Positions 5,782 to 25,119 of a stretch of DNA of 25,119 nt are shown here, piece after piece (position 1 is the first letter of the stretch; every line of letters begins with the position of its first letter). The notes below the pieces were generated by a model. The model was not told the origin of the DNA. It worked only from the letters and a program-made list of their open reading frames with translations, and did no database searches. Origin of the DNA: an uncultured Clostridia bacterium. GTDB lineage: Bacteria > Bacillota > Clostridia > Lutisporales > Lutisporaceae. The position numbers and the translations under genes are program-made. Where the stretch lies: positions 1 through 25,119 of the forward strand of contig CALJSV010000153.1 of NCBI GenBank assembly GCA_937976095.1, in the 5' to 3' direction.

Positions 5782-6588
5782 ATGTTTTATGGTGCAAAGG
5801 GTGGTAATGTAAAAATCGGGAATACAGATATGGACTACGTTTCCTTTGGAAGAGGAAAAAAAACCTTAGTTATTATCCCAGGTCTCTCAGATGGTTTAAA
5901 AACAGTTAAGGGGCTAGCAATAACTCTTGCTATTATGTATAAAGCTTATGCTAAGGATTATAAGGTTTTTGTTTTTAGTCGGAAAAATCAAATGGAAGAA
6001 GGATATTCAACTAAGGATATGGCTATGGATTTGAAAATGGCAATGGATAAGTTAAATATTGAAAATGCACATGTAATGGGTATATCCCAAGGGGGGATGA
6101 TTTCCCAATGCCTTGCAATTGATTATCCGGAAAAAGTTGATAAGCTTATTATTGGAGTTTCTATTTCAAGGCAGAACAAAACCATACAAGATGCGGTAAG
6201 TAATTGGATAGCTTTGGCCGTTAATAATGATTATAAGGGACTGGTTATAGACAAAATTGAAAAGACATATTCAGAGAATAAAGCTAAAACATATAGACCG
6301 TTTTATACTATACTATCTAAGATAGGCAAGCCAAAATCCTTTACTAGGTTTATAGTTCAAGCAAGGGCATGTCTAAATCATAATGCCTATGAGGAGCTTA
6401 ATAAAATAAAGAGCCCTACACTTATTATAGGAGGGGATAGCGACTTAGTTGTTGGAAAAAATACAAGCGAAGAGATGGCAGAAAAAATAGCTCATAGTAA
6501 GCTAATTACATATAAAGGCCTTGGACATGGAGCCTTTGAGGAGGCGAAGGATTTTAATCAACAGATACTTAATTTTTTAAAGGCTTAG
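5782..6588 (+). CDS. Alpha/beta hydrolase fold protein
   Basis: Contains HVMGISQGG (GxSxG), downstream GGDSD, and GLGHGAF (catalytic His region). RBS is GGAGGTG. The start lies 14 bp after the TetR stop, so the two are operonic. Confidence 0.7.
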   Translation: MFYGAKGGNVKIGNTDMDYVSFGRGKKTLVIIPGLSDGLKTVKGLAITLAIMYKAYAKDYKVFVFSRKNQMEEGYSTKDMAMDLKMAMDKLNIENAHVMGISQGGMISQCLAIDYPEKVDKLIIGVSISRQNKTIQDAVSNWIALAVNNDYKGLVIDKIEKTYSENKAKTYRPFYTILSKIGKPKSFTRFIVQARACLNHNAYEELNKIKSPTLIIGGDSDLVVGKNTSEEMAEKIAHSKLITYKGLGHGAFEEAKDFNQQILNFLKA

Positions 6589-6613
6589 TGTCAAAGGTTT
6601 GGAGAGTGTGAAA

Positions 6614-7819
6614 TTATCCCCTCAATATTTCGATTACAGAATTCTTAACTGACACATATAAGTTAGCTATTGAAGGCTCAGATATTAACGAGCCGATTAG
6701 ACAAATGTTACTTGAACTTTGTCTTTCAATTATGTCCTGATAAAAGCTTTGCGTCAGGTTATGCTCCTTTAAATGAGGGAATATGTACCACTGCTTTGCT
6801 GTTATCAAATGCTCAACATGGATTCCGGATCTTTCTATATCATCAGTTATTCCATTGATCAGATCCTTTTGGACGTTCCCATATGCATAGGCCACAAGAA
6901 TGGTACGGTTATTGTGCTTAAAGGTATGGAAAAACTGTATTTTACCTTTTTGCCATAAATGAGCTTTATAATAGGTTGTTACTAGGTTTTTGCTGCTTAC
7001 TTCATATGCACAAGTGATGAATGGATTGGTATCAATTTTCTTCATTAGTTGATTGCATAAATCGTCTTTGATGACATCTCTCGGCAGCTTGGTTGTAATA
7101 AGCACCTTGTCATAATAGTCGGAACCAAAGGCGGTTTCGACTTTCACTTTGTTACCCATAACTTCAATATTGTGAACCTCAATAGAATATCTTATATCCG
7201 ATATGTTTTGACTAAGCTTATTTATTAACTCTGAGGTGCCTTTGTTAATGAACAAAAGCTTATCTCCTCGTATAAAAGACAATATGGTGTCCACATTAAA
7301 GACCTTAAGTGCGTAGAAGGCCTGAGTACTATATATATCTCCAAAGCCATAGGAGGAAAGGTGAGGTGCAATAACCTGGTTGATGATATTCAGGTCATGC
7401 TTTCTGAGAAAGTCATACAACGGAACCAGTAAGTCTTCATGAATATATCCGTAATTAACAGTATTAATTGATGCAGAATATTTCCCCAAAAGCATCTTAA
7501 GCTTAGCCAGCTCATCCATTAGTAAAACCACATCTTCCCTTGACATATGCTCTACATTATTAAAATTTTCATCAACAAAGTTTCTGTAGGTAAATCTCTC
7601 AGTATAGTCAAGTCGCAGCTCTATCAGCAGCTCTTTAATCTGCTTTGTAAATGCGAAAACTGTGCCAAGCTCAGCAAATAAGTCTTTACTTGCAAATGTT
7701 CTGCAATGACCCCCTATATGCTCCTGCTTTTCATAAACAGTGACGTCTATTCCTTCTTTTTCTAGTAAGTATGCCGCGAGCATACCACTGAAACCCGCTC
7801 CAATAATAGCTATTCTCAT
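6614..7819 (-). CDS. FAD/NAD(P)-binding oxidoreductase (amine-oxidase/protoporphyrinogen-oxidase-like superfamily)
   Basis: N-terminal Rossmann motif IAIIGAGFSGMLAAYLLEKEGIDVTVYEKQEHIGGHC. The start is set at MRIAIIGAG, preceded by RBS AAAGGGGATTTT. Confidence 0.65.
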   Translation of the reverse strand: MRIAIIGAGFSGMLAAYLLEKEGIDVTVYEKQEHIGGHCRTFASKDLFAELGTVFAFTKQIKELLIELRLDYTERFTYRNFVDENFNNVEHMSREDVVLLMDELAKLKMLLGKYSASINTVNYGYIHEDLLVPLYDFLRKHDLNIINQVIAPHLSSYGFGDIYSTQAFYALKVFNVDTILSFIRGDKLLFINKGTSELINKLSQNISDIRYSIEVHNIEVMGNKVKVETAFGSDYYDKVLITTKLPRDVIKDDLCNQLMKKIDTNPFITCAYEVSSKNLVTTYYKAHLWQKGKIQFFHTFKHNNRTILVAYAYGNVQKDLINGITDDIERSGIHVEHLITAKQWYIFPHLKEHNLTQSFYQDIIERQSSSNICLIGSLISEPSIANLYVSVKNSVIEILRG

Positions 7820-7829
7820 AAAATCCCCT

Positions 7830-8816
7830 TTAATACTGCCTGTCAATATATGCCCATAAGGGCAGGATAAGGCGGCTATTTGTTAATTTATTATGATACT
7901 CAATAGGAGAACATACCTCATCCTCAAATGCTGTCTTATGGCTTATGTTGTATGCTCTAATGTACTTCTGAAGCTGAATTCTCAGATCATTGAAGGAAAT
8001 ACCTTCATGGATCAGAGGTATTAGAAATGATAGGCAGCCTTCTGTATATTGCTTTCTTAATTCGTCAATCATCGCCATGCTATCATCTGATTTAAGTATA
8101 TGTATTTTTACATCAAGTCCGTTATCTTGAGCTATTTTGCTAACTCTTGAGTTCAAGCTGCTTCTGGTTTGCTTAATGATTTTTAAATCATGGAAAAAGC
8201 AGAAGTACTTAACGTGCAAGCTTAGTGTTTGAGCCACCGGTATAGCTACAGCAGTTAATAAATCTTCAAAATTCTCAAATGATATATCGTGATACAGCCT
8301 TGTGCATGCTATTCTGCTTCTAAAATCAAATAAGGTATACTCATAAATGTTGCCTTGGGTTTGAAAATCCCCATAATAAGTTATCCAAAATATCCAGCAT
8401 TCTCCGCTGTTTAGTTCACTTATAGGAGGGAGCTGACTTGGGGGATTGTTTTCCTTCTTTTTTATAAATCTGACCCTGCTTTCTTTATTGGTAAGGTGGT
8501 GTCTTTTCATAACATTAAAGACAGCTGACTCACTTATGTTATATCCGATTTCTTCCAAAAGATATTTAATAGCCTTTGGTCCATAGCTGGGATATGCTTT
8601 CAATAGACTTAGCAATGCGTTTTCTATCTCATTGCTTGTTTTATTGACAGGAACAAAATCCTTCTTAACATCATCAAGACCTTCGATCCCCTGAGTTTTA
8701 TATCTTTTTAACCAACGATAATAAAGTGTCCTGGAAATGTTATATTTTCGGCAAGTTGTGCTTATGCCGTTTATTTGTCCTTCACTTATAATATTAAATT
8801 TAAGGTTTTTGTGCAT
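7830..8816 (-). CDS. Transposase-like protein: N-terminal HTH plus degenerate rve/integrase-core domain (IS481/IS3-like), probably domesticated
   Basis: The HTH segment is ISRTLYYRWLKRYKTQGIEGL. The core segment GECWIFWITYYG...LFDFRSRIACTRLY...YHDISFENF matches the integrase-core pattern, but the first catalytic Asp is replaced (W-I-T-Y rather than T-D-I-T). No inverted repeats are visible, and the gene abuts the oxidoreductase start. The start codon is uncertain (8816, 8828 or 8840). Confidence 0.45.
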   Translation of the reverse strand: MHKNLKFNIISEGQINGISTTCRKYNISRTLYYRWLKRYKTQGIEGLDDVKKDFVPVNKTSNEIENALLSLLKAYPSYGPKAIKYLLEEIGYNISESAVFNVMKRHHLTNKESRVRFIKKKENNPPSQLPPISELNSGECWIFWITYYGDFQTQGNIYEYTLFDFRSRIACTRLYHDISFENFEDLLTAVAIPVAQTLSLHVKYFCFFHDLKIIKQTRSSLNSRVSKIAQDNGLDVKIHILKSDDSMAMIDELRKQYTEGCLSFLIPLIHEGISFNDLRIQLQKYIRAYNISHKTAFEDEVCSPIEYHNKLTNSRLILPLWAYIDRQY

Positions 8817-8956
8817 AACAACCACCATTTTTACAATCAATTATTTTTGAGTGAGTAATATACTTTTTATTTTACCATCCCCAATGGTCTCCTTCAACAG
8901 TTAAAACTGTACCAAAGTATTTTAAATACTAATATCGAGCGCTGCTTGTAAAAAAA

Positions 8957-16107: not shown

Positions 16108-16734
16108 ATGGATAAAGAAGTATTACAAAATAGCGGCCAACTTGAACAATTAACTGCAGCTGAAATTTGGAAGAAGCTATATGGTAAGGAGCTTGACTGC
16201 AAGAAGCATATCATAGAGTACATTGAAATAACCAAGGTGCTAAAAAAGGAAAATGCAAGTCAGGATCAGATAAAGGATACGTATAATTATATTTATGAGC
16301 ATATAGATGGGCTGAAGGATACAATAAAACCAAATACAATGATGTTTTTAAAGAATAGCTTAAAATCACAGCTTGGAAAATATGTTAAAGAAAAGGATCC
16401 AAAGCTTTTAAATCACTTTGTTGAGTTTTTTAAGGAGGCATACCCTGAAAACAGCAGAAGAAAGGATTTTACATGGGTTCTAATGGATGTAAACAGCATA
16501 TCAGAGGAACAGCTCTGGACTACATTGACCCATATTAATAGAGAGTGCCTAAATAACAGCCTTAATCTGAATCCCAGTCAAAAAAAAGACATAATAGAAG
16601 TGATTGAAAAGGCTGTAGGTAAGAACAATATTAAGTTTATTAATAAGGTTAGGAGCCTAAAAAAATTAAACGAGGAATTAGATATTTCAATTGTTAGTAT
16701 TGGTGAAGTACTCAAGGTAAGGCGTAATCGATAA
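16108..16734 (+). CDS. Hypothetical protein
   Basis: 208-aa ORF with RBS AAAGGAG 7 nt before the ATG. No recognisable motif. Confidence 0.45.
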   Translation: MDKEVLQNSGQLEQLTAAEIWKKLYGKELDCKKHIIEYIEITKVLKKENASQDQIKDTYNYIYEHIDGLKDTIKPNTMMFLKNSLKSQLGKYVKEKDPKLLNHFVEFFKEAYPENSRRKDFTWVLMDVNSISEEQLWTTLTHINRECLNNSLNLNPSQKKDIIEVIEKAVGKNNIKFINKVRSLKKLNEELDISIVSIGEVLKVRRNR

Positions 16735-16994
16735 GCAAGACAAATTCATTTATTTAGGTTTTTAAAAGAAAGGGTAAATGAATGTAAAGACTGCTTTTGA
16801 CAATAAAAGCATGATGTGCTAATGAATGTGGAAGTTTTGGGCAACGACCTTATATTTGGGTTTCCAAACGGGGGAGCTTTTATCGGTTCGCCCTCAATGA
16901 AGATTAAGGGCTTAGCCATATCCGGTGCATAAAGCACGAGGCTGTGCTTAGTCTGAGTGATTAGATAAATAAGAGTTCGAATATTGATACATAG

Positions 16995-17022
16995 GAAAGC
17001 CCTTCAAATAGGGGCTTTTCGC
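16995..17022 (+). terminator. Terminator-like hairpin AAAGCCC...GGGGCTTTTC
   Basis: GC-rich stem followed by a T-run. It lies ~260 nt downstream of the preceding stop. Confidence 0.35.
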
Positions 17023-17169
17023 TATTATTTACGATATATTCTGATATCTGTTTTTATTTACATTGTAATAGAATAACGTGATATTGTTTTGGAAAAGTGA
17101 AACTTTCAATGTTGAAAAGCGTTGTAAATATATACTAAGCATAAACCATGGTTACCGTGCCATTGCTAA

Positions 17170-17199
17170 TTGTATGAATTTCCTAATTATGCTATAATT
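17170..17199 (+). promoter_or_regulatory. Promoter TTGTAT-18-TATAAT for the nfeD/flotillin/AAA+ operon
   Basis: TTGTAT at 17170-17175 and TATAAT at 17194-17199. RBS AAGGAGAAG follows, then ATG 17240. Confidence 0.4.
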
Positions 17200-17239
17200 C
17201 ATTAGTAAATATTTTCAAATATATATAAGGAGAAGCAGT

Positions 17240-17878
17240 ATGAACGAGCTTTTTACTACAGCTGTTACGGGAGTAAATATTATTCCTACCACTTTATTGG
17301 GCTTGGTTATTTTGTATTGGGTGTTTGTAATAGTTGGTGCTCTTGATTTGTCTTCCTTGGATATTGATATAGATGGGGATGCGGATTTGGACTCTATATC
17401 AGGTCCGTTGCATAGCATAATGCTGCTATTCAAAATAGGTCAACTTCCTATAGGGTTTGTTATCAGTGTTATCATTTTAGTATTTTGGGTATTATCAATG
17501 GCTATGCACTTACTGCCCTTTAAGACAGGGGGAATCCTTGCCGGCATTATCATGCTTCCCAGCTTCGTTTTAAGTATATTTATTACAAAAATTATCTTAA
17601 GCCCCTTTGAGAAAGCATTTAGGAGTAGGGTCAAGTCTGAGCTTGAGGAAGAAATCATTGAGGGCAGACGGGGAGTACTTCTATGCGACCTTACCTTTGG
17701 TCGTTTGGGGCAGGTTGAGATAAAAAGGAATGGCAGCCCAATAATTATCAATGTAAAGATGATAAAGGAAGAAGAATTACAAAAGGGAAATGAAGTTCTG
17801 ATCCTAAAAAAGGATGAAGAAAAAGACTTTTACTTAATTACTAAACTTGAAGGAGTGATAAACAAATGGCTTTCTTAA
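17240..17878 (+). CDS. NfeD-like membrane protein (YuaF/YqiJ family): TM helices plus C-terminal OB-fold
   Basis: Three or four TM segments. An acidic loop DIDIDGDADLDS. A C-terminal beta-rich segment EGRRGVLLCDLTFGRLGQVEIKRNGSPIIINVKMI typical of the NfeD OB-fold. It sits immediately upstream of a flotillin gene and overlaps it by 13 nt, as in yuaF-floT / yqiJ-yqiK. Confidence 0.7.
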   Translation: MNELFTTAVTGVNIIPTTLLGLVILYWVFVIVGALDLSSLDIDIDGDADLDSISGPLHSIMLLFKIGQLPIGFVISVIILVFWVLSMAMHLLPFKTGGILAGIIMLPSFVLSIFITKIILSPFEKAFRSRVKSELEEEIIEGRRGVLLCDLTFGRLGQVEIKRNGSPIIINVKMIKEEELQKGNEVLILKKDEEKDFYLITKLEGVINKWLS

Positions 17879-20001
17879 CACAAGTACCTTTCTTAACACA
17901 GGTAACATTAGTTACTGCAGTAGCTTTGGTTGTAATCGTTTTTGGACTAATTGCTTTAATATCCAAGTTTTACAAAAAAGTAGAACAGAGTAAGGTAATA
18001 GTACGAAATGGTGTTGGAGGACAGATCGTCTCATTTGGAGGAATGCTGGTTATACCTATTTTACATAGGGCAGAAATAATGGATGTTTCGGTAAAAAGAG
18101 TTGAAATATCAAGAGAGGGTAAGGATGGGCTGATCTGTAAGGATAACATGAGGGCAGACATAAGAGTTGCTTTCTTTGTCAGGGTTAACCAAACTAGGGA
18201 GGATGTGCTGAAGGTTGCTCAATCCCTGGGATGTCAAAAGGCTTCAGATCCAGGAACACTAATGGAATTCTTTGATGCAAAGTTTTCAGAAGCATTAAAA
18301 ACTGTAGGCAAGAAATTTGATTTCGTACAGCTATATACAGAAAGAGAAAAATTCAAAAGTGAAATTCTTCAGATTATAGGTACTGACTTAAATGGATATA
18401 TTCTTGAAGATGCAGCCATTGATTATTTGGAGCAGACTGATATAAATAAGCTAAACAGCAATAATATTCTTGATGCCGAGGGTATCAAAAAAATTACGGA
18501 GCTAACCTCTCATCAGTTGATTCTTGCAAATCAGATTGAGCGAAACAAGGAAAAAACTATTAAGCAGCAGGATGTGGCAGCTAGGGAGGCTATTCTTGAG
18601 CTTGAGAAACAGAATCAAGAAGCAGAAGCCCGTCAGCAAAGAGAAATAGCTATTATTAGAGCCAGAGAAAAAGCAGAGACTGATAAAGTCTCACAGGAAG
18701 AGCGCTTAAAGGCGGAGATGGCTCGCATTAAGACGGATGAGGATATTGCTATTGCAGAAGAAAACAAGCAAAGACAGATTGTTGTAGCAACAAAGTCTAA
18801 AGAAAGTACAGAAGTAGTAGAGACAGAAAGAGTTGATAAGAAGAGACTTTTGGAGAAGGTAGACAAAGAAAAGCTGGTAGCTCTTGCGGAGATCGATAAA
18901 GAGAAAACCCTTGAGGAAGAGAAGAAAAACATTCAGACAGTTATTCGTGAGCGTGTGGCTGTTGAAAAAGATGTAGTAATTGAAGAAGAGAAAATAAAAG
19001 ATACAAAGGTAATTGCTGAAGCTGAACGTCAAAAGCAAGCAGCTTTAAAAAAGGCTCAAGAGCAAGCAGAGTCTAATTTGATCGTAGAGGTTCAAAATGC
19101 CGAAGCGGCAAAGCAAGTAGCCGAAAGAGCTGCACAGCAAAGAGTTATTGAAGCTGAAGCTAAGCTGCAATCTTCAGAAAAGGAAGCTGAGGCTATCAAA
19201 ATACTTGCTGATGCTCAGATAGTGCAGGCAGCCACAAGTGGATTGGCAGAAGCCCGCGTTATAGAGACAAAGGCGTCAGCTATGGAAAAGGAAGGCGGCT
19301 CGAAGGCAAGAGTAATGGAGGCAACAGCGGAGGCAGAAGCTAAAGCAATCGAGATAAAAGCACTGGCAGAAGCAAAGGGCGAAGAGGCAAAGGTTATTGT
19401 AAGAGAAAAATCCGGAACTGTTGAGGTTGATATTATGTCTAAAAAATATCATGCCGAAGCAGAAGGGATTGCGAAAAAAGCTACCAGCATGAAGGCACTG
19501 GATGAAGCAGGCAGAGGTCACGAGGAGTTTAAGCTTAAGCTTGATAAAGAGAAGGAAATTGAGCTTGCTCAAATAAATATTCAAAAGGATATAGCAGAAG
19601 CACAAGCAGCAGTTATAAGTGAAGCCTTGAAGTCAGCATCTATTGATATCGTTGGCGGAGAGACAATGTTCTTTGACAAAATCGTTGGTGCTATTACCCA
19701 AGGTAAGTCCGTTGACCGTGTTGTTAAAAACAGCGAGGTGCTAAGTGATATTAAGAACACTTTTATCACAGGTGATGGAGATTATTTTAGATCTCAGTTA
19801 GAGAGACTGACTTCAAAATTCAATCTGACTTCAGAGGACTTAAAAAATCTATCAATTTCAGCTGCTATTCACAAAGCAATGAAGTTTGCGGATTCATCCG
19901 AGAAGACAGCGCTTATGAAGCTACTGGAAACTGCAGAAAAGGCGGGCTTAGCAAATTTGCCGGCTAACCTTCTTGGAAAACAAATTACTAGCAATGAGTA
20001 A
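17866..20001 (+). CDS. floT: Flotillin-like SPFH/band-7 protein (FloT/YqiK family), unusually long
   Basis: N-terminal TM helix followed by KKVEQSKVIVRNGVGG. SPFH domain. Roughly 300 aa of E/A/K-rich coiled coil. 711 aa in total. Confidence 0.8.
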   Translation: MAFLTQVPFLTQVTLVTAVALVVIVFGLIALISKFYKKVEQSKVIVRNGVGGQIVSFGGMLVIPILHRAEIMDVSVKRVEISREGKDGLICKDNMRADIRVAFFVRVNQTREDVLKVAQSLGCQKASDPGTLMEFFDAKFSEALKTVGKKFDFVQLYTEREKFKSEILQIIGTDLNGYILEDAAIDYLEQTDINKLNSNNILDAEGIKKITELTSHQLILANQIERNKEKTIKQQDVAAREAILELEKQNQEAEARQQREIAIIRAREKAETDKVSQEERLKAEMARIKTDEDIAIAEENKQRQIVVATKSKESTEVVETERVDKKRLLEKVDKEKLVALAEIDKEKTLEEEKKNIQTVIRERVAVEKDVVIEEEKIKDTKVIAEAERQKQAALKKAQEQAESNLIVEVQNAEAAKQVAERAAQQRVIEAEAKLQSSEKEAEAIKILADAQIVQAATSGLAEARVIETKASAMEKEGGSKARVMEATAEAEAKAIEIKALAEAKGEEAKVIVREKSGTVEVDIMSKKYHAEAEGIAKKATSMKALDEAGRGHEEFKLKLDKEKEIELAQINIQKDIAEAQAAVISEALKSASIDIVGGETMFFDKIVGAITQGKSVDRVVKNSEVLSDIKNTFITGDGDYFRSQLERLTSKFNLTSEDLKNLSISAAIHKAMKFADSSEKTALMKLLETAEKAGLANLPANLLGKQITSNE

Positions 20002-20018
20002 ATGAGGTGTAGTGAGCT

Positions 20019-23000
20019 GTGGGTGAACTAAAAACAACTGAACAAGGCGGACAAAATCCAGCCGAAGGTATTGAAAATGGCACATATGAATTAATAAAGA
20101 GCAGACTAGGCAAAATAGGCAGCGACCTGAAGGAAAAACTCGATAAATTAAATATTTCCAGAAGAAGCGTGTTTGGTTCAATTGAGACAACCCTGCTCGG
20201 CAGTGAAAAGATTATTACTGAAAACAATTGCGTCCCACGAGACATGGCTCCCGTGGGAGCTTTGTTTATCTTCGGTTACAACGTATATATTGGACTGAAA
20301 TCCTCTGTTGAGCTTTCTGACGTCTTTTCCATCTATGAATACAAGGGTGGATCATTCCACAAACAATCCTTAGAGCTTATTAACAATGATCAATTTTTAA
20401 ACGACTTCAAAGAATTATATAAGTACTACAAGAATACTTTCTTTGCAAAGTTTACAAATGTAGGACCTTATCTTTATATGGTATTTCAGACCGGGAAGAG
20501 TCCCTTTGATATAAAAGCCTTCAAATGGCTTATGAAGGATGGCAAGCTTTCCTACGTAGACAACAGGAGTGAGCATGAGGTAAGACTGAAGGTTCAAAGT
20601 GAGCTTGATTGGGTTAGAGCTAAGAGAGAGGATCACTGTGAGGGCAGGCATCCGCATATATCAATTAGAGATAAGGTCTTTGTAGAAACCTTAGGTGGAG
20701 ACCTTACTATAAAGGTAGAGAATAACACGGATACCGGTAAAGGCATTTACTCTGAGACTGTGGAAGATATGGATCAGACCCTTGATGATGCTGAAATATA
20801 TTATGCGTCAGTAGGAAATCTAATACTTTTGAAAATTCTTCCTTACAGGGAAAAAGAGTACCGCTACATAATATTTAATGAAAAGCTGCAGATGGTTGTT
20901 CGAGTAGATGCTATAAAGGATTCTTGCGTGCTGTTGCCGGATAACCATGGACTTATATTCCCTAAGGGCTATTATTTGCAAAGCGGTGAACATAAGCTTT
21001 TTGAAGTGCCCAGTGAAGGCTTTGTTTTTGTTCAGCGTATAGAAGCTCCTAATGGAGAGGATTTTCAGTACATTTTCTACAATATGGAAACGGGATTATA
21101 CCTGATATATACATACAATATAATTGAGCAATCATTGGAAATACCGATAATCTGTGGTGGCTACTCACATTTTAACAATGGTGAGATGGTGATTTTTAAG
21201 GGGGAAGACGAGCCTCGTAAGAACCATACCCTGCAAATATGGCAGACTCCATATGTGGGAGAAGGCTACACGGTTGAGAATAAAAGCGACTCAGTTCTGT
21301 ATAAAATAGGCAATAAAGAAGTTGTTCATTGTATGGCAGACTGCAAGGTAGTATATAACCTTATTCAAAAAGGGGAGAGCTATACAAGCATATACCTGGA
21401 CATCGTAAAAGACACTGAAAGAATTATGGACTCTTATTATTGGCTGGACAAAGCTGAGGCCTTTAACCTGAAAGCAGTGCTAAAAAGCGTAAAAGAGGCT
21501 GCTACTTCAGCAGTTGCTGAGTTTGAAAAGGTAACAAGAATAAGGTGTTCTACAGAGAAGCAAATCAAAGAAGTAGATGAAAAGGCTCAAGTGCTGCTGA
21601 AGAATGCTGAGTACGGTACATTTGACAGTATTCAAGGTTATGTGCAGATTCTGGCAGATTTAAGGTCTTTAAGAGGAGAGATAGCTTCTCTCAAGGCCTT
21701 GCGCTACACTAATTTGCCGCTGGTTGAGTCACTGGAAGAGAAGGTCAAAGAAAAAAATGAAAGGCTAACCCAAAGATGTACTGAGTTTCTTCTGGTTCCT
21801 GAAGGACTCAGGCCTTACTCACAGCAGGTTGACAATCAGCAGAGCCAGATTCCTTCTATTACTAAGACCTCTTCGGGAAAAGAGCTGGAGAATGAGATGG
21901 CAAAATCCTCTCAGGACTTAGAGCTGCTAATTGATATTGTAAGCAATTTTAATATAGAAGACCCGACAAAAACAACAGAGATAATTGAAAATATATCTGC
22001 CATATTTTCTCTCCTAAACCAGGCTAAAGCAAAGCTGAAAAACCGTATGGTAGAGCTTTCCGAAAAAGAGGGAATTGCACAGTTTCACTCCCAGATGAAG
22101 CTGCTAGACCAAGCTGCTGTTAATTATCTTGAAGTTGCAGATGGCATGGAAAAATGCGAATTATATCTGAACAAGATAATGGTACAGATTGAGGAGCTGG
22201 AAGGCAGATTTGCAGATTTTGAAGACTTCATTGTAAAGCTTAATGAAAAGCGGGAAGAGCTTTATAATGCTTTTGAAGCAAAAAAACAGATGATTTTAGA
22301 GAAACGGAACAAAAAGCTCACTGCTCTTTTTGGCACATCTGAGAGGATACTAACTGGAATTATCAGCCGACTTCAGGGCTTTAATACTATTAATGAGATT
22401 AACGGCTACCTTGCATCAGATATCATGATCGATAAGGTAAGAGATATCATTGATCAGCTTAAGGCATTGGGAGATAGTGTGAAGGCTGATGAAATTGAAG
22501 GAAGGCTAAAGATAATAAAAGAGGAGGCTATCCGTCAGCTAAAAGACAAACAGGAGTTATTTGTTCATGGGAAAAACGTAATTAAGCTCGGCAGGCATTA
22601 CTTTTCCTATAATACTCAGCAGCTTGAGCTGTCAATGGTGCAAAAGGACGGAGAACTATATTTTCATATTACTGGAACTGATTTCTGGGAAAAAGTATCA
22701 TCAGATAGTATGGCTAAGTTCCACTACCTGTGGGACCAGGAAGTACTGTCAGAATCTAAGTATATTTATCGTGCCGAGTACCTTGCATATAAGATATTTG
22801 AGGCAGCTTTAAGTAAGGAGGTAGTATCCCTTGATACGCTTTATTCATACTCTGAGGAACAGCTATTGGAATACATCCGCAAGTTTATGGAGCCACGTTA
22901 TCAAGAGGGATATACAAAAGGTGTCCATGACGCAGATTGTCACAAACTACTAAAAGCGCTTTTGAATTTGCACATGAATATTGACCTGTTAACCTACAGT

Positions 23001-24968
23001 CCAAAATCCAGAGCCATTGCAAAGCTATACTGGCAGTGCATAGCCGGCTCAGAAATAAAGGATAAGTTTAGCAGACGCTTAAGGGAATTGGCAAAAATAA
23101 GCATGTACTTCAAGACAGAGCCTGGATTGGGGGATTATATCCCTACCATCGAAACAGAAATGAACAGTGCTTTCAATAATTACAAATTCGTTGATAAAGG
23201 CTTTGTTTATGAAGCTTCAGAATATCTATGCAGGGAGCTAATGCGTGGCAGCTCATTTATAGCAAGTCTTGAAGCAGATGAAGCCAAAAGCAAGTTTTTG
23301 CAACATCTTAAAGCCAATAAAGCAGAAAGCCTTTTTGCTGAGTCTCTTAAGGCCTTTAATGAAGACTTGGAAGGAGCATATTATCTTGTACGGGAGTGGC
23401 TTACTGCGTTCTTTAAAGAAACAGGCTTAAATGAGGGCATTGACGTAATGGATGAAGTCATTACTTTGTTAATTGTTGATAGTAGCAAAGTCGACATCAG
23501 CAGACAAAAAGTTATTAACATGAAAACAAGGGTGATGATCACCGAATTAAGTGGAAATCATCCAAGCATAAAAGGAGGAGAGTATACTCTTTCATATACA
23601 GAGTTCATGAAAAAACTAAAGGAATATGATAAAACTGTTGTATGTGATTTCATTGAATTTCAAGCTTTGAAGAAGGAGCTTTCACAGAGATTTAGAGATG
23701 AACTCCGCTTGGAGGAGTTTAAGCCTAATGTGTTATCCTCCTTTGTAAGAAATCGATTAATAGATAAGGTGTATCTGCCGTTGATTGGTGATAACCTTGC
23801 AAAACAAATAGGTACAGCAGGCGAAGATAAACGAACAGACCTGATGGGCATGCTTCTATTGATATCTCCACCAGGCTATGGAAAGACAACCCTTGTAGAG
23901 TATATTGCAAATCGTCTTGGCATTTTTCTTATCAAGATCAACGGACCTGCTATTGGAAACGATGTAACTTCACTGGATCCTGCTATGGCTCCAAATGCAG
24001 GTGCAAGAGAAGAGCTGAGAAAGCTCAACCTAGCCTTTAAAATGGGCAACAATGTTATGATTTATCTGGATGATATACAGCACTGCAGCCCGGAGTTTCT
24101 GCAAAAGTTTATTCCTCTGTGTGACGGACAAAGGAAAATTGAAGGTGTTTATAATGGGATGGGGCAATCCTATGACCTTAGAGGGAAGAAGCTGGCTGTT
24201 GTCATGGCAGGGAATCCATACACAGAGAGCGGTGAAAAGTTCCAGATTCCTGACATGCTTGCAAATAGAGCAGATGTCTATAATCTTGGAGACATGCTCC
24301 ACGAAAACGAAAATGCATTTAAGCTGAGCTATATCGAGAATTCTTTGACCTCTAACCCTATTCTTAATAAGCTTGCATCCAGAAGTCAGAAAGATATTTA
24401 CACTATGATTGACATTGCAGAGAATGGGGAAAGAGAGGGCTTGGATTTTGAAAGCCAATACTCTGTTGAAGAGATAAATGAGTTTGTGGCTGTTATTCAA
24501 AAGCTTATGAAGGTGCGCGATATAGTTCTAAAGATCAATATGGAATATATCTATTCTGCTGCACAAGCTGATGAATACAGAAAAGAGCCACCCTTTAAGC
24601 TTCAAGGCTCCTACAGGAATATGAACAAAATATCAGAAAGAATAGTTCCATTAATGAATGATGAAGAGCTGATGCAAATGGTTGCGAACGCCTATGAAAA
24701 TGACTCGCAAACCTTAACACAGGGAGCAGAAGGCAATATGCTGAAATGGAAGGATATTGCAGGACATATCAATGAACAAGAAGCCTTGAGGTGGAAGGAA
24801 ATAAGAGATATTTTCTTAAAAAACAAGCTGGCGAGGGATGATAGCAAAATAGGTCAGGCAATTATTAAGCTTGGTGATTTAAATGAACAGCTAGGGGTTA
24901 TGACAAGCGTACTGACAAAAGGTGTAGAGAGGATGTGTGGTCACACCCCAGCTCCGCCAAATAAGTAA
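20019..24968 (+). CDS. Giant (1649 aa) protein: unknown N-terminal ~480-aa domain, long coiled-coil/helical middle region, C-terminal single AAA+ ATPase of the MoxR/McrB (helix-2-insert) clade
   Basis: GTG start with RBS GAGGTG, 17 bp after the flotillin stop. Walker A LISPPGYGKTT. Walker-B region MIYLDDIQHCSPEFLQ (compare MoxR hhhhDEINRA). AVVMAGNPYTESGEKFQIPDMLANRADV matches the MoxR ATQNP...LPEAQLDRF segment. Confidence 0.7.
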   Translation: MGELKTTEQGGQNPAEGIENGTYELIKSRLGKIGSDLKEKLDKLNISRRSVFGSIETTLLGSEKIITENNCVPRDMAPVGALFIFGYNVYIGLKSSVELSDVFSIYEYKGGSFHKQSLELINNDQFLNDFKELYKYYKNTFFAKFTNVGPYLYMVFQTGKSPFDIKAFKWLMKDGKLSYVDNRSEHEVRLKVQSELDWVRAKREDHCEGRHPHISIRDKVFVETLGGDLTIKVENNTDTGKGIYSETVEDMDQTLDDAEIYYASVGNLILLKILPYREKEYRYIIFNEKLQMVVRVDAIKDSCVLLPDNHGLIFPKGYYLQSGEHKLFEVPSEGFVFVQRIEAPNGEDFQYIFYNMETGLYLIYTYNIIEQSLEIPIICGGYSHFNNGEMVIFKGEDEPRKNHTLQIWQTPYVGEGYTVENKSDSVLYKIGNKEVVHCMADCKVVYNLIQKGESYTSIYLDIVKDTERIMDSYYWLDKAEAFNLKAVLKSVKEAATSAVAEFEKVTRIRCSTEKQIKEVDEKAQVLLKNAEYGTFDSIQGYVQILADLRSLRGEIASLKALRYTNLPLVESLEEKVKEKNERLTQRCTEFLLVPEGLRPYSQQVDNQQSQIPSITKTSSGKELENEMAKSSQDLELLIDIVSNFNIEDPTKTTEIIENISAIFSLLNQAKAKLKNRMVELSEKEGIAQFHSQMKLLDQAAVNYLEVADGMEKCELYLNKIMVQIEELEGRFADFEDFIVKLNEKREELYNAFEAKKQMILEKRNKKLTALFGTSERILTGIISRLQGFNTINEINGYLASDIMIDKVRDIIDQLKALGDSVKADEIEGRLKIIKEEAIRQLKDKQELFVHGKNVIKLGRHYFSYNTQQLELSMVQKDGELYFHITGTDFWEKVSSDSMAKFHYLWDQEVLSESKYIYRAEYLAYKIFEAALSKEVVSLDTLYSYSEEQLLEYIRKFMEPRYQEGYTKGVHDADCHKLLKALLNLHMNIDLLTYSPKSRAIAKLYWQCIAGSEIKDKFSRRLRELAKISMYFKTEPGLGDYIPTIETEMNSAFNNYKFVDKGFVYEASEYLCRELMRGSSFIASLEADEAKSKFLQHLKANKAESLFAESLKAFNEDLEGAYYLVREWLTAFFKETGLNEGIDVMDEVITLLIVDSSKVDISRQKVINMKTRVMITELSGNHPSIKGGEYTLSYTEFMKKLKEYDKTVVCDFIEFQALKKELSQRFRDELRLEEFKPNVLSSFVRNRLIDKVYLPLIGDNLAKQIGTAGEDKRTDLMGMLLLISPPGYGKTTLVEYIANRLGIFLIKINGPAIGNDVTSLDPAMAPNAGAREELRKLNLAFKMGNNVMIYLDDIQHCSPEFLQKFIPLCDGQRKIEGVYNGMGQSYDLRGKKLAVVMAGNPYTESGEKFQIPDMLANRADVYNLGDMLHENENAFKLSYIENSLTSNPILNKLASRSQKDIYTMIDIAENGEREGLDFESQYSVEEINEFVAVIQKLMKVRDIVLKINMEYIYSAAQADEYRKEPPFKLQGSYRNMNKISERIVPLMNDEELMQMVANAYENDSQTLTQGAEGNMLKWKDIAGHINEQEALRWKEIRDIFLKNKLARDDSKIGQAIIKLGDLNEQLGVMTSVLTKGVERMCGHTPAPPNK

Positions 24969-24986
24969 CCAAATTTTGATACATAG

Positions 24987-25023
24987 CCAAAGACCGTTGA
25001 AATCAGCGGTTTTTGGTATTTTT
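24987..25023 (+). terminator. Rho-independent terminator of the giant-gene operon
   Basis: CCAAAGACCGTT gaaatc AGCGGTTTTTGG forms a ~12-bp stem with G-U pairs and is followed by TATTTTT. Confidence 0.5.
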
Positions 25024-25024
25024 A

Positions 25025-25119
25025 GTGCGCCCGGCATGGGCGCAATCTAACGGGTGAGAGTCCCGAACACGCCCTAGTAGTGGGAAGTGTATAGCTTAAG
25101 GCAAGGGTGTCCTTGGCGA
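25025..25119 (+). mobile_element. Putative 5' end of a group II intron (domain I; class C-like insertion after a terminator), truncated by the window end
   Basis: Begins GTGCGCCCGGCATGGGCG, matching the group II 5' consensus GUGYG followed by a GC hairpin. It sits immediately 3' of a terminator stem-loop plus T-tract, the classic class IIC target. Further local hairpins (CGGGTGAGAGTCCCG) are present. Confidence 0.4.

Follow-up and report, generated by a model that had tools for sequence, protein, structure and literature searches.

Class C (IIC) group II introns of bacteria insert at terminator motifs and encode proteins that lack an endonuclease domain (PMC4424553). The excised intron RNA, in association with its own reverse transcriptase (RT)/maturase, recognises a DNA stem-loop by its shape. 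An EBS1 loop of 3–4 nt then pairs with IBS1, a short sequence that follows closely on the stem, while EBS3 pairs with the base immediately 3′ of the insertion point. This is followed by reverse splicing into that DNA strand and by copying into DNA (PMC1702495, PMC4424553, PMC10190682). As no endonuclease domain is present in the IIC protein, the primer comes from a replication fork. Among the hallmarks of the class are a short domain V with a CGC triad and, in the epsilon′ bulge, an AGGAA motif (PMC1702495). The IIC intron that was used to define terminator-linked recognition of the 5′ exon is B.h.I1 of Bacillus halodurans (PMC1702495).

The window analysed here is a whole stretch of 25,119 nucleotides, which represents one entire contig. 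Its last 95 nucleotides (25025–25119, + strand) are almost certainly the beginning (nt 1–95) of a bacterial IIC group II intron retroelement, i.e., the 5′ part of domain I, located behind the terminator of the upstream gene. The evidence consists of identity to two full-length relatives (L131 and L119), a covariance model and plasmid homologues. The intron has the same orientation as the upstream gene and begins 7 nt after the stem of its rho-independent terminator. It is cut off by the end of the contig, with position 25119 being intron nt 95. This is a new copy within a large, well-understood family, and nothing about it challenges what is known on IIC introns.

The upstream gene (20019–24968) encodes a 1649-aa DUF3686/AAA ATPase, and the ORF list, Pfam and the sequence place its TAA stop codon at 24966–24968 (+ strand). 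The hairpin of an intrinsic terminator begins 18 bases after the end of this stop, at 24986–25017 (+ strand), and has the sequence GCCAAAGACCGTTG-AAAT-CAGCGGTTTTTGGT. The terminator scan called this hairpin with 14 pairs and the 4-nt loop AAAT. RNA folding gave −21.1 kcal/mol (z = −7.6) in comparison to −5.8 ± 2.0 for shuffled sequences, with none of 200 shuffles folding as well. The hairpin is the structured target motif and resides at the place of IBS2 in IIA/IIB introns. It is separated from the intron by the T-rich spacer ATTTTTA (25018–25024, + strand). The reported distance from stem to intron in IIC introns is 3–11 nt (PMC1702495), and thus the 7-nt spacer lies inside this range as well as inside the 0–10 nt distribution of the family. 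The last three exon bases, 5′-TTA-3′ (25022–25024, + strand), are the predicted IBS1, a prediction for this copy that is based on covariation within the family. They would pair with the EBS1 of this intron, which is expected to read 5′-TAA-3′ at approximately intron nt 180, past the end of the window. As it sits behind an intact terminator, the element interrupts no gene and would be transcribed by read-through only.

The intron itself opens with GUGCG (25025–25029, + strand), which corresponds to the consensus GUGYG for the 5′ splice site. In the alignment it coincides with position 1 of 129 copies of the family. The initial annotation had proposed an intron that starts directly after a terminator and its T-tract, has a GUGYG-type start and runs for ~95 nt until the window ends. 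The observation is confirmed: the hairpin, ATTTTTA and GTGCG at 25025 follow one another, homology to many other group II introns at their 5′ ends sets in with the first base, and the distance from 25025 to 25119 is exactly 95 nt.

A blastn search of 24987–25119 against plasmids returned 36 records with E-values down to 1e-19. All of these matches begin at the T-run or at GTGCG, and none reaches into the hairpin. Three plasmid loci were inspected (Clostridium estertheticum, Roseburia and Staphylococcus aureus); in all three, an annotated ltrA gene lies ~400–1700 nt downstream and the Rfam model RF02001 scores 133–149 bits right after the matching stretch. The homologues from the phage collection, like the plasmid ones, are followed downstream by annotated ltrA genes.

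Genome and metagenome contigs contained no exact match to the intron sequence of the window, and degenerate patterns were needed to find the relatives there. A degenerate 36-mer of the intron start matched 103 stretches in species-representative genomes, including those of Acetobacterium, Clostridium and Vallitaleaceae, with ten or more copies in the complete chromosome of Sporomusa rhizae. The same pattern matched two viral contigs, and a second degenerate pattern gave 26 metagenome stretches. In these 103 genome and 26 metagenome stretches, the same 5′ end is preceded by unrelated flanks. The first bases of the family are GTGCG at 121 of 129 sites and GTGTG at 4 of 129.

The closest relatives are L115, which matches at 93 of 95 positions and is represented by 480 nt of sequence, and the full-length elements L119 and L131, both from public metagenomes and matching at 92 of 95 positions each. 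The alignment of the window to nt 1–95 of L131 and L119 has 96.8% identity over 95 nt with an E-value of 1e-40. A covariance model (CM R1) was derived from 39 relatives, the window itself being excluded. It matches the window at 25025–25119 only (92.4 bits, E 1.3e-23), with model position 1 falling on 25025, while the runner-up match reaches 12.2 bits. The rest of the window contains no further intron or RT fragments, and tblastn revealed no RT-like coding sequence anywhere in it.

The RNA family models of Rfam give no match at gathering thresholds across the whole window. The initial annotation had named assignment to a different RNA family by cmsearch as a finding that would speak against an intron; there was no significant match of any kind. 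When 24900–25119 was searched with E-values up to 10, psRNA14, RNAI, TEG147, a CRISPR repeat, potC and IS128 appeared as chance noise overlapping the terminator, the best of these unrelated matches having E-values of 0.9–6. The absence of a group II match is explained by the coverage of the models. In homologous loci RF02001 (group-II-D1D4-3) begins 84–88 nt after the first base of the intron, and the remaining Rfam group II models describe domains V–VI and more 3′ portions of domain I. As the models start at approximately intron nt 86 or cover domains V–VI, and the window holds nt 1–95, no group II match arises in it.

The structure of the 95 nt was predicted with an RNAalifold consensus on 52 sequences, which contains 23 pairs, 13 of them with compensatory double changes. 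The window fulfils every predicted pair that it contains. Thus, the GC-rich hairpins first described as domain-I-like are real conserved helices. The best supported is a two-part helix at 25067–25090 (+ strand), identified through strong covariation, in which nt 43–46 pair with nt 63–66 and nt 48–50 with nt 58–60. Six of its seven pairs are changed on both sides, five of them in 14–25 of the 52 sequences. The second-best supported is the next helix, at alignment columns 89–93/98–102, where all five pairs are changed on both sides and two of them in 25–27 sequences. The window retains its 5′ strand CCTTG and the loop GCGA (25111–25119, + strand). The 3′ strand lies past the contig end and is expected to be CAAGG, as in L115 (TCCTTGGCGACAAGGA).

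Two further hairpins are nearly invariant and are weakly supported as predicted structures. The 5′-proximal hairpin of the RNAalifold consensus joins nt 2–9 with nt 13–20 (25026–25044, + strand) and is mostly invariant, with weak covariation at pair 4:18, which changes from C-G to U-A in two sequences. In the alignments (A2/A3), a conserved GGG-UGAGAGU-CCC hairpin is present at nt 28–40 (25052–25064, + strand); its GGG/CCC pairs are invariant and speak neither for nor against structure. The loop of this hairpin (GGGUGA-G-AGUCCC) contains a G at intron nt 34 (25058), where 50 of the 52 aligned sequences differ, 49 of them having A. The G is shared by the window and the metagenome intron L131 only.

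The EBS1, domain V, domain VI and RT of the present copy, on which catalysis and mobility of a group II intron depend, lie outside the window and are inferred from its relatives. The element of L131 runs from 5837 to 7738 (1902 nt) and that of L119 from 411 to 2313 (1903 nt). Both match RF02001, then RF01998 and then RF00029, the last covering domains V–VI at the 3′ end and ending at nt ~1902. The RF02001 match to the bases just after the matched 95 nt scores 138–145 bits. A 472-aa ORF is present in each element and ends just before domain V. It contains the Pfam domains RVT_1 and GIIM, and no HNH/endonuclease domain was found.

Among solved structures, the best match of the L131 RT is the maturase of the Eubacterium rectale IIC intron (7UIM; E 2.6e-123, residues 52–467), followed by the GsI-IIC RT (6AR1, also IIC; E 6.5e-118). 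The E-value is 2.7e-45 for LtrA (5G2X, IIA) and 4.1e-37 for 6ME0, which we take to be a class IIB maturase. In this comparison of the L131 RT with the PDB, the IIC maturases are ~75 orders of magnitude better in E-value than the IIA/IIB maturases. Domain V of L131 and L119 reads GCGCCGUAU-ACC-GAUC-GGU-UC-GUACGGUGC, with a CGC triad and a 3-bp upper stem. The motif GAATCYRAAGGAA (AGGAA) occurs at nt 100–113 in 42 of 51 distinct relatives. On the basis of their solved RT relatives, the CGC triad in a short domain V and a 3-bp IBS1–EBS1 pairing, the nearest full-length relatives are classed by sequence as class C.

The first-ATG ORFs of L131 (6237–7655) and L119 (812–2230) have ~50 residues before the part that aligns with MarathonRT, the alignment pairing L131 query residues 52–467 with chain residues 3–420. 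These ~50 extra N-terminal residues may be a real extension or may reflect a mis-set start. There are also twintron-like relatives, L118 (− strand from 3753), L087 and L001, in which a second group II intron is nested in the IIC intron. The nested intron is of another type (group-II-D1D4-2, RF01999) with its own domain V, giving a total of ~3.1–3.7 kb.

The targeting of the family was assessed on 129 unique upstream flanks, taken as the 50 nt before the intron, with random 50-mers from the same loci as controls. The median minimum free energy (MFE) over 50 nt is −20.1 kcal/mol for the flanks versus −7.4 kcal/mol for the controls. An MFE of −12 kcal/mol or lower is reached by 91% of flanks and 18% of controls (Mann–Whitney p 3.5e-56). 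The T content of the last 10 nt before the intron is 0.64 in comparison to 0.28 in the controls, and in nearly all family sites a hairpin ends 0–10 nt before the intron. A strong hairpin with a T-run thus lies directly before the intron at 91% of the 129 different sites. The class IIC-like terminator targeting proposed at the outset holds family-wide at this frequency, and the interpretation of the initial annotation is supported.

The top three mutual-information (MI) signals link the upstream bases −1, −2 and −3 to three intron columns at nt ~179–184 that are consecutive and antiparallel to them, having values of 0.76, 0.57 and 0.73 against 0.47 for the next best. By its pattern, this covariation is identified as the IBS1–EBS1 pairing. 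Examples within the family include TAT/ATA, ATT/AAT, TTA/TAA, GTC/GAT and CAG/CTG, and L119 has the same IBS1 as the window (TTA) with the EBS1 TAA. A cryo-EM structure places the EBS1 of the E. rectale intron at A184–G187 (PMC10190682), and the covarying loop at nt ~179–184 thus matches its place. A scan of positions −4 to −6 found no intron column that covaries with them; in the family flanks the would-be IBS2 place is occupied by the hairpin.

A few family sites lie close to other RNA elements. At L124 the IIC intron begins 30 nt after a T-box leader match (RF00230, 364–586; region 364–616), which puts it behind the attenuator terminator, between the leader and its regulated target. At L126 (158–276) and L123 (10462–10584) the intron is found ~45–50 nt after a tRNA gene.

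A protein identical to the 1649-aa product (20019–24965) is recorded on one contig, which has a length of exactly 25119 nt, and the intron is thus cut by the assembly. Of 133 family sites in public assemblies, 72 are likewise interrupted 44–141 nt into the intron, a pattern that multi-copy repeats usually leave when short reads are assembled. The contig is therefore inferred to break at the intron because the element is multi-copy. The copy is most likely both full length and multi-copy, as judged from its relatives. A further ~1.8 kb would probably follow in the source genome, comprising the rest of domain I, domains II–VI and an RT/maturase ORF of ~420–470 aa. The sequence past 25119 would be expected to continue in domain I with GAATCTGAAGGAA within ~6 nt, reading ...CAAGGAATCTGAAGGAA.

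An unlikely but not negligible alternative is that the 95 nt are the dead 5′ remnant of a IIC intron that has been internally or 3′ deleted or truncated. For this copy nothing past nt 95 is visible, and among the 40 family copies with at least 1950 nt downstream, ~9 are either shortened or show no domain V on inspection (e.g., L077, L021, L093, L128 and L028). However, 28 of the same 40 copies have domains V–VI ending at ~1.85–1.92 kb, and another three are complete and owe their larger size to a second intron nested in them. In addition, every conserved helix is retained in the 95 nt, whose identity to intact introns is 97%, while a contig end inside the element suggests several near-identical copies and, with them, recent activity. 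An intact intron is consequently preferred to a remnant. There is a slim chance that the remainder has a less ordinary form, being either a twintron, as in L118, L087 and L001, or a single copy from an unusually large burst that this intron would have undergone recently in the genome of an uncultured member of the Clostridiales, with read-through of the terminator coupling its expression to the DUF3686/SPFH operon.

The two other explanations would deny the intron itself or its junction. That the 95 nt belong to another structured RNA with a chance GTGCG start (for instance a riboswitch, an sRNA or a leader belonging to the next gene) is exceedingly improbable. The lack of an Rfam group II match in the window would fit such an RNA, but no other Rfam family matches either, and the stretch corresponds base by base to nt 1–95 of elements in which Rfam group II domains and an RT gene follow. 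It is very improbable, though slightly less so, that an assembly artefact has produced a chimeric contig end joining the terminator to an intron from elsewhere. The match does lie at the very end of a short-read contig and in a repeat; however, the junction obeys the target rule of the family exactly, with its strong hairpin, T-run and 7-nt spacing and with a TTA that fits the EBS1 TAA of the near-identical relative L119. A random misjoin would not reproduce this combination. A genuine IIC intron at its own target site thus remains the favoured reading. As regards the locus it would have entered, the nearest ortholog of the upstream gene is that of Clostridiales bacterium GWB2_37_7 (L136; 88% aa identity). 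No intron sequence is present at L136, where the intergenic region is non-alignable, contains an N gap and has no Rfam match, and no clean empty orthologous site was found at this nearest ortholog.

The upstream ATPase gene is part of a conserved four-gene cluster at 16108–24968. This consists of two small ORFs (208 and 212 aa) without Pfam matches, a 711-aa SPFH/Band_7 protein and the 1649-aa protein (20019–24968), which combines DUF3686, DUF7902 and an AAA ATPase. Clostridiales bacterium GWB2_37_7 has the last three of these genes in the same order, and ATPases of the 1649-aa type are widespread in Clostridia. None of the four cluster genes matches a PADLOC defence model. Elsewhere in the window, on the − strand at 7830–8840, a 336-aa ORF contains HTH_28/HTH_32/HTH_23 domains, which are typical of transposase N-termini. 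Judging by these domains, it may be an IS-related gene.

The value of the finding is mainly for annotation, as a multi-copy retroelement would explain where the contig ends, and annotation of the 95 nt as a leader or an sRNA should be avoided. The first ~85 nt of IIC introns are not covered by the Rfam group II models, and as a result fragments of this type at contig ends go unannotated. MarathonRT and the GsI-IIC RT are enzymes used in biotechnology. The RT of the present family is close to both, and full-length copies could therefore supply variants.

In comparison with described systems, the Rfam group II models RF02001, RF01998 (group-II-D1D4-1) and RF00029 (Intron_gpII) are matched in the expected order by all full-length relatives, whereas the 95 nt of the window are essentially unmodelled and score nothing. 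The intron B.h.I1 shares with the relatives of the present copy an inverted repeat followed by Ts, an IBS1–EBS1 pairing of 3–4 bp, the domain V CGC and the AGGAA bulge (PMC1702495). In an ungapped count, 18 of its first 25 nt (GTGTGCCAGGCATGCGCATATTCTC, from primers in PMC1702495) match 25025–25049. It differs in being a distant sequence relative only.

The GsI-IIC RT of Geobacillus stearothermophilus (6AR1) is, like the RT of L131, an RT/maturase without an endonuclease domain. This likeness is at the protein level and comes by way of the relative L131, as the window encodes no part of the protein. The E. rectale IIC intron with MarathonRT (7UIM/7UIN; PMC10190682) has its EBS1 in the same place (A184–G187 versus nt ~179–184 here) and uses the same kind of target, consisting of a DNA stem-loop, a short spacer and an IBS1 of 3–4 nt. 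It belongs to another sequence lineage, and the ORF of the relative is 472 aa long when counted from the first ATG, in contrast to 427 aa for MarathonRT. The present family has been described here from sequence, and this copy of it from nt 1–95.
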